Below are positions 43,429 to 46,027 of a stretch of 64,000 nt of DNA, one piece after another; position 1 is the stretch's first letter, and each line of letters starts with the position of its first letter. The DNA is from Escherichia coli. GTDB lineage: Bacteria; Pseudomonadota; Gammaproteobacteria; Enterobacterales; Enterobacteriaceae. Location: assembly GCF_003790525.1 (NCBI RefSeq), contig NZ_CP033635.1. The stretch is one strand, 5' to 3'. The position numbers and the translations under genes were made by a program. The notes below the pieces were generated by a model that worked only from the letters and a program-made list of their open reading frames with translations, made no database searches and was not told the DNA's origin.

Positions 43429-43636
43429 GATTCGTATTTCCGTTTAAAATGAAGATACGGCGCGATGATACGCGTCGGGTTGTCTCTCTGTTGATACAGA
43501 GATACTAGATGTAGTTGAAAAAAGATTCAACCACACAAGATATGGGAATTTTAGATTGATTACGCCACCGATGAATGGCTCAACGGGGTAGGGGATTTTG
43601 TGTTTTTTTGCCGGGCGAATACCCGGCATCAAGAAG

Positions 43637-44068
43637 TTACATCCGCATGGAAACGGCCAGACGGTTAAAACAATTCATCAGCCCGATGGCAAACGTTAAG
43701 TCGCTGATCTCTGCTGCGCTGAAATGCTCAAGCAAAGGCTGATAAACCTCGTCTTCCGCATGGGTTCTGGCAATTTCGGTTACCGATTCCGCCCATGCCA
43801 GCGCCGCCCGCTCGCGTTCATCAAAATGATGGCTTACGCGCCAACCTGCCAGGGCGTCCAGTTTGTGCTGTGGCACGCCGGATTTGCGCAATGCTTTGCT
43901 GTGCATCTCCAGACAAAATGCGCAGCCGTTGATTTGCGAGACGCGCAAATAAACTAACTCCATCAACGTGGTATCCAGTGTGCTATTTTCCAGTGCCGTT
44001 TTGGCCTGCACTAGTGCGTTATACACTGCCGGGCTAAGTTCGTAGTAAGGCTGACGTAATGTAGTCAT
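43637..44068 (-). CDS. Carboxymuconolactone decarboxylase (CMD)/AhpD-like peroxidase-related protein; no K-12 counterpart at this locus
   Basis: 143-aa ORF with strong AGGAG Shine-Dalgarno; contains GCAFCLEMH (CxxC...H, AhpD-core-like); divergent from the MocR-type regulator. Confidence 0.8.
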   Translation of the reverse strand: MTTLRQPYYELSPAVYNALVQAKTALENSTLDTTLMELVYLRVSQINGCAFCLEMHSKALRKSGVPQHKLDALAGWRVSHHFDERERAALAWAESVTEIARTHAEDEVYQPLLEHFSAAEISDLTFAIGLMNCFNRLAVSMRM

Positions 44069-44099
44069 ACAGTTTCTCCTCTTATTAACGCCCGCAATG

Positions 44100-44120
44100 T
44101 AGCACTATAATGGACTGCTA
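44100..44120. promoter_or_regulatory. Inverted repeat TAGCA-N11-TGCTA enclosing a perfect TATAAT; candidate operator/promoter
   Basis: Located in the 87-bp divergent region between the CMD gene and the MocR gene. Confidence 0.3.
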
Positions 44121-44155
44121 AAGAGAGCCATAAATTACCTAAAAAAGCAGACCAT

Positions 44156-45490
44156 ATGCCGCGCTATCAGGATATCGCCCGTCAGTTAAAAACGGCTATT
44201 GAGCAAGGGGAACTGAAACCCGGCGCAAGGCTGCCTTCAAGTCGTACCTGGTCGCAGGAGCTGGGGGTGTCTCGATCCACTGTCGAAAATGCGTATGCTG
44301 AGCTGGTGGCGCAAGGATGGCTGATCAGGCGGGGACAGGCTGGCACATTTGTCAGTGAGCGGATATATCCGCAACAATCTACTGTACAAGTTGTAGCTTT
44401 TGCCGGTGAAAGTCAGCAACCGTTGCCATTTCAAATGGGATTACCCGCACTCGATCTCTTTCCGCGAGAGCTGTGGGCGCGGGTGATGGGGCGTCGCCTT
44501 CGTACCCAGACGCGCTTTGATTTGGCGTTAGGCGATGTCTGCGGTGAGGCGGCGTTGCGCGAGGCAATAGTTGATTACTTACGCGTTTCACGTGGGATTG
44601 ATTGTCAGCCAGAGCAGGTCTTTATCACTCACGGTTATGCGGCCTCAATAGCTTTAATTCTGCACGCGCTGGCGAAACCGGGAAACGGGATGTGGATAGA
44701 AGATCCCGGCTTTCCACTGATTCGCCCGATTGTCACTCGCCATGATGTGGAAATTTTGCCTGTGCCGGTTGATGACAATGGACTGGATATCACAAGCGGA
44801 ATACAAAATTATCCTGATGCGCGTTTTGCCCTGATAACACCAGCACACCAAAGTCCGCTGGGTGTGGCGCTCTCTTTAGCGCGCAGGCATCAGATACTGG
44901 AATGGGCAGATCGTAGTCAGGCATGGATTATTGAAGATGATTATGACAGTGAGTTTCGCTATCACGGTAAGCCGTTACCGGCGTTGAAAAGTCTCGACGC
45001 ACCGCAGCGGGTAATTTATGCCGGAACATTCAGCAAAGCGCTATTTCCTGCATTGCGCTGTGCGTGGCTGGTGGTGCCGGTGAAGCAAATTGCACAATTC
45101 CGCCACCAGGCGTCACTGGCTCCATGTGCGGTACCTGTTCTATGGCAGAACACACTGGCAGACTTTCTTCGCGAGGGGCATTTCTGGCGGCATCTGAAGA
45201 AAATGCGTCAGCATTATGCTCAACGTCGGCAATGGATTGAGCAAGCGTTGACGCAGCAAGGATTTCAGGTTGTGCCGCAGAAAGGTGGTATCCAGATGGT
45301 GATCAGAATGATAGGCGATGATATTGCCCATGCGCGTAAAGCCAATGCTGCAGGCCTTGCGGTGCAGGCACTTAGCGACTGGCGTATCCGTTCAAGTGGG
45401 GAAGGTGGATTACTGCTTTCGTTTACTAATATCGTTAACGAAGGTATGGCGCGACAGGTAGCACAACAATTACGTAAAGCCTTAAGCTAA
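44156..45490 (+). CDS. MocR/GabR-family regulator (GntR-type HTH fused to a PLP aminotransferase-like domain)
   Basis: 444-aa ORF; N-terminus LPSSRTWSQELGVSRSTVENAYAELVAQGWL is a GntR-type HTH; the remainder is aminotransferase fold-type-I-like. Flagged as absent from K-12 at this position. Confidence 0.8.
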   Translation: MPRYQDIARQLKTAIEQGELKPGARLPSSRTWSQELGVSRSTVENAYAELVAQGWLIRRGQAGTFVSERIYPQQSTVQVVAFAGESQQPLPFQMGLPALDLFPRELWARVMGRRLRTQTRFDLALGDVCGEAALREAIVDYLRVSRGIDCQPEQVFITHGYAASIALILHALAKPGNGMWIEDPGFPLIRPIVTRHDVEILPVPVDDNGLDITSGIQNYPDARFALITPAHQSPLGVALSLARRHQILEWADRSQAWIIEDDYDSEFRYHGKPLPALKSLDAPQRVIYAGTFSKALFPALRCAWLVVPVKQIAQFRHQASLAPCAVPVLWQNTLADFLREGHFWRHLKKMRQHYAQRRQWIEQALTQQGFQVVPQKGGIQMVIRMIGDDIAHARKANAAGLAVQALSDWRIRSSGEGGLLLSFTNIVNEGMARQVAQQLRKALS

Positions 45491-45519
45491 AAAACCCCGA
45501 AGCCAGGCTTCGGGGTCAA
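45491..45519 (-). terminator. Intrinsic terminator of ygaM (abuts the MocR-gene stop)
   Basis: ccccgaag-ccagg-cttcgggg stem followed on the minus strand by TTTTT. Confidence 0.6.
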
Positions 45520-45546
45520 AGACGCGTATTTATTATCATTTTTGCA

Positions 45547-45876
45547 TTACGATTTGCGCATGCTTAACAGTGCGCCGATAAAAATACCCACCGCTGCCGC
45601 TGTACCCACACTACACCAGGGTCTTTCACGAACAAAAGAATCCGCGCAGCCAACGGCATCGCGCGCGGCTTGCTGGACGCGAGTACGACCATGCATCCGC
45701 GCCCTGGTTTCTTTCAGTAGAGCCTGCGCTTTACTACGAGCGGCTTCGGCTTCCCCTTTGGCGTCGCTGCACCAGGACTTCAATACAGATTCGAGACTGT
45801 CAGCTAATTGATTGACATCATTCTGGATATCTTGCACGCCATCATCAACGTCGTTGCGGTTCGGTCGGTTAAACAT
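45547..45876 (-). CDS. ygaM: Ribosome-associated DUF883/ElaB-family membrane-anchored protein YgaM
   Basis: 109 aa from the internal ATG, which has a GGGGGA Shine-Dalgarno (the track ORF is 113 aa); C-terminal TM segment. Confidence 0.8.
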   Translation of the reverse strand: MFNRPNRNDVDDGVQDIQNDVNQLADSLESVLKSWCSDAKGEAEAARSKAQALLKETRARMHGRTRVQQAARDAVGCADSFVRERPWCSVGTAAAVGIFIGALLSMRKS

Positions 45877-46027
45877 ATGATCCCCCATTAGAATTCGATG
45901 TAATTTTCAGTGTAGACCATAATTTTCTTAACTGAGGTTCATCGCGGCTTTATGGACTTTTCTGAAAGCGTTGTGAATGCGCAATCAGGTAAGGTAGGCC
46001 CGCGGTTGATAATAACGAGGATCAAAT

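Follow-up and report, generated by a model that had tools for sequence, protein, structure and literature searches.

In the Escherichia coli genome analyzed here, two divergently transcribed genes lie between nrdH and ygaM, raising the question of how they came to occupy this position and whether one of them controls the other. A first reading made from the sequence alone (the sequence-only reading) had proposed a strain-specific insertion that forms a small private regulon. We reassessed this proposal over the window, i.e., the whole 64-kb stretch of DNA that was analyzed, and in related genomes. The reading that we favor, at a probability of about 0.72, is that an inherited mocR-CMD module was lost in K-12 and that its regulator acts through a 46-bp operator on both genes.

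Gene layout and protein families

The two open reading frames are separated by 87 bp in the gene order alaE-ygaC-ygaM-[mocR<>CMD]-nrdH-nrdI. The features of the locus, with the evidence for each, are as follows.

43610..43627, no strand: hairpin GCCGGGCGAATACCCGGC, directly past the CMD stop codon (sequence; kept in Escherichia carriers)
43637..44068, minus strand: CMD/AhpD-like gene, 143 aa (ORF list, Pfam CMD, TIGR00778, PDB matches)
44075..44081, minus strand: Shine-Dalgarno sequence of the CMD gene, GAGGAGA on the minus strand (direct sequence reading)
44104..44109, minus strand: predicted CMD -10 box TATAGT (position deduced from the near-invariant CACTATAAT block)
44106..44111, plus strand: predicted mocR -10 box TATAAT (position deduced from near-invariance in 66 distinct orthologous sequences)
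44110..44155, no strand: predicted three-box operator (fixed spacing, conservation)
44156..45490, plus strand: mocR-type regulator gene, 444 aa (Pfam GntR and Aminotran_1_2, PDB matches)
45493..45517, minus strand: ygaM terminator hairpin, between the convergent mocR and ygaM genes (terminator scan; K-12 junction alignment)

For the CMD transcript, the hairpin at 43610..43627 lacks a U-tract. Purifying selection acts on both genes (dN/dS about 0.03-0.12), with values of 0.03-0.10 for the CMD gene and 0.07-0.12 for mocR.

Domain searches bore out both protein assignments of the sequence-only reading. The 143-residue protein, which includes the CxxC...H motif GCAFCLEMH, matched Pfam CMD PF02627 (E 5e-21) and scored 54.9 against the TIGR00778 AhpD-core model (cutoff 27.8). 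Its closest solved homologue, aligned over the full length, is the AhpD-like protein PA0269 of P. aeruginosa (PDB 2o4d, 2ijc, 7xw1; E 3e-31 for 2o4d and 2ijc), which belongs to the same length class and has the same Glu/Cys/Cys/His set. The residues E37, C49, C52, and H56 were invariant in 17 orthologues and are predicted to form the catalytic set, in the pattern Glu37-Cys49-x-x-Cys52-x3-His56. PA0269 has the relay Glu36/Cys48/Tyr50/Cys51/His55 and a weak, thiol-dependent H2O2 reduction activity (PMC3141380); unlike PA0269, the protein of the window has an invariant Phe51 at the place of Tyr50. A redox or peroxide role by homology to PA0269 is reasonable, and the gene product would be a small CxxC thiol oxidoreductase of the AhpD-like PA0269 subgroup, probably with weak peroxidase or disulfide reductase activity. 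Thiol oxidoreductase activity as such is somewhat favored; the change from Tyr to Phe in the relay and the very weak activity of PA0269 speak against a firm assignment of the substrate.

The CMD protein shares the CxxC-x3-His active-site motif and the fold family with M. tuberculosis AhpD but is not a canonical AhpD of that type: it scored 30.9 against the TIGR00777 AhpD model (cutoff 192), it carries its active-site helices at the N-terminal end, like PA0269 (PMC3141380), and no ahpC partner gene was found next to it or elsewhere in the locus.

The divergent 444-residue protein combines an N-terminal GntR wHTH domain (PF00392, residues 4-66, E 1.4e-17) with a fold-type I aminotransferase-like domain that spans approximately residues 100 to 440 (PF00155 Aminotran_1_2, residues 126-386, E 3.8e-26). 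It aligned full-length with the structures of B. clausii PdxR (7pq9, E 1e-62) and GabR (4n0b, E 2e-54); its PLP (Schiff-base) lysine K294, within TFSKALFP, aligned with GabR K312, and the EDDYDSEF motif is conserved. These features, along with a multi-box operator near its own gene, place the protein in the MocR subfamily, most likely as a PLP-holding GntR-family dimer. It is not GabR: the GabR NCBIfam model gave 261 bits (cutoff 600), the GABA-binding Arg207 and Arg430 of GabR are replaced by Leu188 and Asp408, and there is no gabT neighbor.

Two other functional identities were weighed. Membership in the Pfam CMD family would also suit a true gamma-carboxymuconolactone decarboxylase that acts in the catabolism of aromatics, but this is scarcely credible, given the CxxC-x3-His AhpD-core signature with TIGR00778 above its cutoff, the absence of any PcaC-specific family among the NCBIfam matches, the absence of nearby pca genes in any genus surveyed, and the AhpD-like PA0269 and Atu0492 as the nearest structures in the PDB search. 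The regulator could be a true PdxR for vitamin B6 synthesis or salvage, with the CMD gene as an incidental neighbor. PGAP calls the gene PdxR in many genomes, the NCBIfam PdxR model NF052282 scored above its cutoff (407 bits versus 320), the top PDB match is B. clausii PdxR, and the protein, like PdxR, lacks the two GABA-binding arginines. E. coli, however, makes PLP by the PdxA/PdxJ route, and pdxS, pdxT, and pdxK were absent from the locus in every genus (~65 species), where the CMD gene is the sole conserved divergent neighbor and the conserved operator sits between it and mocR. The orthologues have also been placed in a non-PdxR group with COG2128 as the sole target, whereas the Enterobacteriales PdxR2, PdxR3, and PdxW form separate groups (PMC5320631). 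A PdxR function is thus quite unlikely, and the PGAP label probably reflects an over-extended model.

Distribution of the pair and the K-12 deletion

In K-12 MG1655, ygaM adjoins nrdH across a 247-bp spacer, as the sequence-only reading had stated, and both genes of the pair are missing. Its description of the pair as strain-specific did not survive the comparison of this junction across E. coli: 1276 of 5426 complete genomes carry both genes intact, 111 more match them in part, and ~74% lack them. All 1387 matches are chromosomal and single-copy, with none on plasmids. Carriers include the B2 strains IHE3034 and Nissle 1917 and O157:H7, where the genes are ECs_3534/3535. As many as 111 B2 genomes make up the partial matches; in the five listed, the N-terminus of the regulator is missing, yet the CMD gene is intact.

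A tblastn survey that covered 80 species loci revealed the pair in the same slot and orientation in ~65 other Enterobacteriaceae species from more than 12 genera. The pair-bearing taxa include Escherichia albertii and whittamii, Citrobacter, Salmonella diarizonae, Klebsiella, Raoultella, Buttiauxella, Cedecea, Yokenella, Pluralibacter, and Shimwellia. In Citrobacter, Salmonella, Klebsiella, and others, the divergent layout is the same, and the protein identities are 61-79% for MocR and 68-90% for CMD. The common slot across genera means that the K-12 state is a deletion of ~1.87 kb. K-12 keeps just two boundary hairpin remnants: the left edge of the deletion is marked by the nrdH-proximal arm of the hairpin 43610..43627, of which only GCCTGGTG...AAAATCCCC remains, and the right edge by the ygaM terminator hairpin 45493..45517, which is common to K-12 and the window.

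Consequently, the notion of an inserted pair has to be replaced by lineage-specific deletion of an ancestral module; this and the identities of both genes we regard as practically certain. That the pair entered between nrdH and ygaM by horizontal transfer, as a strain-specific insertion, is highly improbable. Such an insertion would accommodate the lack of the pair in K-12 and in about three quarters of complete E. coli genomes, as well as the divergence between the B2 and O157 alleles of the mocR-ygaM segment (dS 0.34-0.42 compared to ~0.1 in the neighbors), a sign of local recombination or old haplotypes. Against it stand the position and orientation, identical across genera, the exclusively single-copy chromosomal matches, and the features expected of an islet, which are missing: the pair has no flanking direct repeats or mobility genes, and its GC content of 0.50-0.53 is similar to that of the neighboring DNA. 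The two-gene module was instead inherited vertically in Enterobacteriaceae and kept in phylogroup B2 (the type of the window) and the O157:H7 lineage, and the ~1.87-kb deletion removed it from K-12 and from some three quarters of the E. coli sequenced. The pair divides B2 and O157 from K-12-like E. coli.

The shared control region

The 87-bp intergenic region contains a predicted 46-bp operator, ATGGNCTG-N10-CCAT-N16-CAGNCCAT (44110-44155), composed of box A (44110-44117, forward), the box B core (44128-44131, reverse), and box C (44148-44155, reverse), the last abutting the mocR ATG. [quoted passage not shown] Spacing was fixed, with zero indels among 66 distinct sequences, and the mean information was 1.52 bits per column compared to 0.56 on the CMD 5'UTR side, where the CTCCTC block of the Shine-Dalgarno sequence is mostly kept in orthologous intergenic regions (variants TTCCTC and ATCCTC). 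The operator pattern has a single match in the window, with a chance expectation of 0.03. In Kluyvera, the operator carries mirrored changes, ATGGTCTTA and TAAGACCAT. Box B has only CCAT in common with boxes A and C, and its conservation could reflect a promoter element instead of a binding box. The operator spacer at 44117-44128 has a 12-nt perfect inverted match in the mocR coding region (44869-44880), which is most likely due to chance (~0.16 expected per 2.3 kb, an estimate).

The operator overlaps the predicted -10 boxes of CMD and mocR, which themselves overlap back to back, and the mocR start codon. A consensus scan of the intergenic region detected no complete sigma-70 promoter, so the promoter positions are predicted from the conserved -10 hexamers only. 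The CMD promoter has a -10 box but no good -35, and its -35 position falls on box B.

The inverted repeat of boxes A and C could, as an alternative to a protein site, fold within the mocR leader RNA into a hairpin that hides the start codon. Its 9-nt arms, ATGGNCTGC and GCAGNCCAT, would be separated by a loop of 28 nt and run up to the ATG, and the mirrored Kluyvera changes suit a paired stem. However, the predicted fold gains no stability over shuffled sequence (-8.2 kcal/mol, z 0.10), and the arm pair seen most often, in 21 of the 66 distinct sequences (among them those of Escherichia, Citrobacter, and Klebsiella), is mismatched at its center (A-A). The arms are no more conserved than the loop and box B, as expected of a DNA site rather than a stem. 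We therefore consider the hairpin very unlikely.

Proposed regulation and related systems

The divergent synteny across genera and the strongly conserved three-box operator agree with the earlier suggestion that the regulator controls its divergent neighbor. The conserved operator lies over the -10 boxes and the start codon of mocR, which supports both autoregulation and control of the CMD gene, and the regulator probably acts on both genes through the 44110-44155 site. Most likely, it would bind the 46-bp three-box operator in the common 87-bp control region. Relative to the predicted mocR transcription start near 44118 (+), the operator extends from about -8 to +38, over the start codon, which implies autorepression. 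Relative to the predicted CMD transcription start near 44097 (-), it would lie at about -13 to -58, and this position combined with the lack of a usable -35 implies that CMD is activated from boxes B and C in an effector-dependent manner, in the geometry of B. subtilis GabR at gabR/gabT. The odds for activation, as opposed to plain repression, are about even.

Plain repression at both promoters, released by an effector and involving no activation step, is the less likely but possible course. Box A touches or overlaps the two -10 boxes, the start codon of mocR is covered by box C, and the listed natural mocR N-terminal deletions retain an intact CMD gene, which makes more sense if CMD is de-repressed once the regulator is lost; under obligate activation, CMD would not be expressed in these strains. 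On the other hand, the CMD promoter has no recognizable -35, boxes B and C occupy class II activator positions, and the relatives GabR, TauR, and PdxR activate their divergent targets (PMC5320631). The sequence suits activation and simple repression alike. The natural regulator-null alleles, such as the N-terminal deletion in strain CFE299, make the system experimentally tractable, and the exact predicted operator is now available for work on the MocR regulon.

The mocR-CMD regulatory link itself is already known as a comparative-genomics prediction from 2016: Table S1b of Suvorova & Rodionov 2016 lists the regulog 'Spro_3719 - Enterobacteriales', with target COG2128 and the members STM2803, KPN_03002, CKO_04020, Ent638_0497, ECA2654, and Spro_3719 (PMC5320631). 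The regulator type, the single AhpD/CMD target family, the taxa, and the divergent orientation of an orthologous MocR and a COG2128 gene in Enterobacteriales are the same here, and the genes of the window are the E. coli B2 orthologues of this regulog. It differs in that E. coli is represented there by K-12 only, which lacks the pair, and in being purely computational. From synteny in the same genera and the LT2 numbering, in which nrdH is presumably STM2805, we infer that the regulog's locus tags denote the nrdH-adjacent genes. A literature search by full text and locus tags found no experiments on the pair. The finding is of small import beyond housekeeping, and nothing points to an unusual mechanism.

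Among characterized relatives, B. clausii PdxR (7pq9; cryo-EM with DNA 7zla, 7zn5, 7zpa, 7zth) is the best structural homologue of the regulator. Its operator mixes direct and inverted repeats, as does the mocR-CMD operator (PMC5320631), but it controls pdxST, and no pdx gene is linked to the mocR-CMD locus. B. subtilis GabR-gabT (4n0b) resembles the pair in domain architecture, in the PLP lysine (K312/K294), and in its layout: the target is divergent, and the operator overlaps the promoter and start of the regulator as well as the -35 region of the target, as Belitsky reportedly described for gabR/gabT in 2004. It differs from the pair in that our regulator fails the GabR model and lacks Arg207/Arg430, and the target is not an aminotransferase.

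PA0269 lies in the predicted regulon of the adjacent MocR PA0268 (PMC5320631). PA0268, however, belongs to another orthologous MocR group, and its regulon adds the cupin COG1917. Closer Pseudomonas homologues of the CMD protein (65-69% identity) have no adjacent MocR homologue. MocR-COG2128 pairing is widespread, with 53 instances (PMC5320631). The PLP of the regulator might serve as a chemical sensor of a PLP-reactive molecule and induce the CxxC enzyme to detoxify it. Carbonyl reagents such as cyanide, hydroxylamine, or an aminooxy compound, or an amine adduct formed from an oxidant, would be examples of the sensed molecule. This idea, which we hold to be doubtful, draws solely on the recurrent pairing and on MpaR, a MocR reported to respond to cyanide. 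If true, MocR-COG2128 would constitute a general, undescribed stress-sensing circuit, and the difference within E. coli between lineages with and without it (B2 and O157 versus A and B1) would be ecologically meaningful.

The CMD-mocR gene pair among E. coli genomes

Two divergently transcribed genes, 87 bp apart, are bordered by nrdE-nrdI-nrdH on one side and by ygaM, ygaC, alaE, and stpA on the other.

43637..44068, minus strand: CMD gene (AhpD-like), ORF of 143 aa containing GCAFCLEMH
44156..45490, plus strand: mocR (MocR-type regulator), ORF of 444 aa

Both ORFs are clean, and domain searches confirmed the family assignments of the sequence-only reading, namely the CMD/AhpD core (Pfam PF02627, E 5e-21; TIGR00778, 54.9 bits versus a cutoff of 27.8) and, for the regulator, a GntR wHTH domain at residues 4-66 (E 1e-17) combined with a class I/II aminotransferase domain (E 4e-26). 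As that reading had also proposed, the pair is missing from K-12 MG1655, where ygaM and nrdH are neighbours with a 247-bp spacer that holds neither gene. Its description as strain-specific, by contrast, did not hold. When the region was compared by megablast with 5426 complete E. coli genomes, three classes emerged: the full segment was present in 1276 genomes, a partial match only in 111 more, and the flanks only in the remainder; every match was chromosomal and single-copy. IHE3034 and Nissle 1917, both B2, are among the 1007 carriers at ≥99% identity; strains SC516 and MINF_1A match the window at 100%. Another 365 genomes, mainly O157:H7, have a second allele (~92% identity), and in Sakai the genes are named ECs_3534 ('transcriptional regulator') and ECs_3535 ('alkylhydroperoxidase'). 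The pair is a common, long-annotated component of the E. coli accessory genome. Purifying selection acts on both genes, since pairwise dN/dS within E. coli, among Escherichia species, and versus Citrobacter was low (CMD gene, 0.03-0.10; mocR, 0.07-0.12); the comparison with Salmonella covers mocR only, the CMD dS being saturated.

Five listed partial-match genomes (H86-H90; L083:1690-1700 in E. coli CFE299) lack the same 589 bp, with microhomology at the junction (...GCAGACCA/GATGTGG...), equivalent to window 44155-44740. The deletion takes out the mocR start, the wHTH, and ~195 residues, leaving the operator and the CMD gene untouched, and PGAP calls the mocR remnant a pseudogene. These genomes represent natural regulator-null strains.

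Ancestry of the module and the K-12 junction

A scan of one genome per species (GTDB) with the CMD-orthologue alignment yielded 80 loci, in which a tblastn survey found the order alaE-ygaC-ygaM-[mocR<>CMD]-nrdH-nrdI in many taxa: Escherichia albertii, E. whittamii, and Escherichia sp. E1V33; many Citrobacter species and Salmonella enterica subsp. diarizonae; Klebsiella and Raoultella; Yokenella, Pluralibacter, and Pseudocitrobacter; and Buttiauxella, Cedecea, and Shimwellia. At the Citrobacter freundii-group loci (L014, L015, L017, L018, L020-L025) tblastn detected no ygaM, the remaining order being intact. CMD-nrdH adjacency is kept in most genera and lost in Kluyvera and Leminorella, where the pair is present and nrdHI are not adjacent. 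The GC content of the region (0.50-0.53) is backbone-like, and no flanking repeats or mobility genes were found around the pair. In K-12, the ygaM terminator hairpin almost directly abuts the nrdH-proximal arm of another hairpin, located in carriers as follows.

43610-43627: hairpin just 3' of the CMD stop codon, cut by the K-12 junction

The joining of the terminator to this remnant arm shows a ~1.87-kb deletion in K-12 (roughly 43620-45492) that removed exactly the two genes. Together with the shared gene order, the GC content, and the lack of repeats and mobility genes, the junction refutes the earlier framing of the pair as a strain-specific insertion; the module is ancestral.

On the CMD transcript, this hairpin is followed by an A-run, not a U-run (region 43610-43636). 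It is not a canonical terminator, so transcription from the CMD gene could run on into the nrdHIEF operon. Locus L034, titled Chryseobacterium sp. 18061, has an enterobacterial alaE-ygaC-ygaM-mocR-CMD-nrdHI locus on its contig with a layout nearly identical to that of L032 (Citrobacter sp. 18056), which comes from the same study; mislabelling or contamination of the assembly is probable.

Predicted operator and regulation of the CMD gene

Intergenic DNA between mocR and the CMD gene was extracted at 71 loci and comprised 66 distinct sequences, in which a ~58-bp block with absolutely fixed spacing is almost invariant (TAGCACTATAATGGaCTGc..AGAgAGCCATA......AAAAAgCAGaCCAT; mean 1.52 bits/column versus 0.56 in the remainder of this intergenic DNA).

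44110-44155: predicted operator of three boxes, from conservation
Box A, forward: ATGGACTG, 5' part of the operator
Box B, reverse: core CCAT at 44128-44131
Box C, reverse: CAGACCAT, last base directly before the mocR ATG
44106-44111, plus strand: predicted -10 box of mocR, conserved hexamer TATAAT
44104-44109, minus strand: predicted -10 box of the CMD gene, conserved hexamer TATAGT

Boxes A and C are mutually inverted copies, and the pattern ATGGNCTG-N10-CCAT-N16-CAGNCCAT occurs once in the 64-kb window (0.03 expected by chance). Kluyvera has mirrored changes in both boxes (ATGGTCTTA and TAAGACCAT), which count as one event because they come from one clade. The candidate operator is of the same type as the commonest MocR operator, 'two direct boxes plus one inverted box' with a TGG core, found in 32% of regulons (PMC5320631). 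An RNA hairpin formed by the A/C repeat was rejected, as the fold was no better than that of shuffled sequence (z 0.10) and the arms of the commonest pair are mismatched (A-A) at their centre. The operator spacer (44117-44128) and mocR coding sequence (44869-44880) share a perfect 12-nt inverted match (GCTAAAGAGAGC / GCTCTCTTTAGC), probably due to chance.

The two -10 hexamers overlap within the invariant CACTATAAT; both lack a good -35 box, and a consensus scan of the intergenic DNA gave no full promoter. If transcription starts ~7 nt downstream of each -10 box, the operator covers ~-8 to +38 relative to the mocR start and ~-13 to -58 relative to the CMD start.

This conserved operator between the two genes supports the proposal that the regulator controls its divergent neighbour. 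Work by Belitsky from 2004 is said to describe the same layout for B. subtilis GabR at gabR/gabT. Because the layout predicted for mocR/CMD matches it, we prefer a model in which MocR would repress its own gene via the operator and, together with an effector, would activate the CMD gene. Simple repression by MocR is a serious rival to this autorepression and activation model.

The MocR-CMD circuit is already catalogued, as a computational description, in a published regulon atlas. Table S1b of Suvorova & Rodionov 2016 lists the Enterobacteriales regulog of orthologous group 'Spro_3719' with target COG2128 (AhpD/CMD) in Citrobacter koseri (CKO_04020), Enterobacter sp. 638 (Ent638_0497), Klebsiella pneumoniae (KPN_03002), and Salmonella Typhimurium (STM2803), as well as ECA2654 and Spro_3719; COG2128 is also the P. 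aeruginosa target of group PA0268 and appears 53 times among MocR targets (PMC5320631). The PA0268-group target is taken to be PA0269. Our literature search returned no experimental study of the pair in E. coli or Salmonella. Synteny of the pair was confirmed in Salmonella, Klebsiella, and Citrobacter species by the tblastn survey. In LT2, nrdH is STM2805, and STM2803/2804 would accordingly be this pair. It seems improbable that MocR-COG2128 pairing serves generally to sense and detoxify PLP-reactive compounds.

Several Pseudomonas species with CMD homologues (L068-L079; 65-69% identical) lack a MocR homologue within 5 kb, and in Pollutimonas, Pectobacterium zantedeschiae, and Bordetella hinzii (L076, L081, L082) a 45-47% identical MocR lies 600-1100 bp off and is not directly divergent, so the pairing is not universal in this CMD subgroup.

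Protein relatives and allele divergence

The closest relatives of the CMD protein are P. aeruginosa PA0269 (2o4d, 2ijc, 7xw1; E 3e-31) and Atu0492. PA0269 has Glu36, Cys48, Tyr50, Cys51, and His55 and weak thiol-dependent H2O2 reduction (PMC3141380). All 17 orthologues compared share the CMD residues E37, C49, C52, and H56, and the Tyr is replaced by an invariant Phe. The protein is not a canonical AhpD (TIGR00777, 30.9 versus a cutoff of 192; no adjacent ahpC), and nothing points to a PcaC decarboxylase role.

Among solved structures, the regulator best matches B. clausii PdxR (7pq9, E 1e-62) and B. subtilis GabR (4n0b, E 2e-54). K294 lines up with K312, the PLP lysine of GabR, and the EDDYDSEF motif is preserved. 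The GABA-binding Arg207 and Arg430 of GabR are replaced by Leu188 and Asp408, so the effector is not bound the way GabR binds GABA. The NCBIfam PdxR model NF052282 scores the regulator at 407 (cutoff 320), and newer PGAP annotations in many genomes (H5, H37, H41, and others) read 'pdxR: MocR-like pyridoxine biosynthesis transcription factor'. We do not file it as PdxR because the locus has no linked pdx gene in any genus surveyed and its conserved operator is directed towards the CMD gene. The equivalog model seems to extend past true PdxR.

Between the B2 and O157 alleles (window 44156-45888 versus L002), dS was 0.42 for mocR and 0.34 for ygaM, compared with 0.10-0.12 for nrdI, nrdH, CMD, and ygaC and 0.01 for alaE. 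The mocR-ygaM segment comprises either much older haplotypes than its neighbours or imported DNA. In K-12, a ~45-bp stretch (L001:2290-2340; window 43540-43585) that lies immediately upstream of the conserved nrdH promoter block and borders the nrdHIEF regulatory region matches the window at only about half of its positions. It differs also from O157, E. albertii, and E. whittamii, which resemble each other more, so the deletion haplotype was not recently derived from the B2 or O157 alleles. The O157-type allele (L002:3592-3740; window 45518-45546) has ~93 bp extra between the shared terminator hairpin and ygaM, which looks like a REP-type element (…GATGCGCTATGTTTTTCAGGCCTGTAGGCGGACAAGGCG…).
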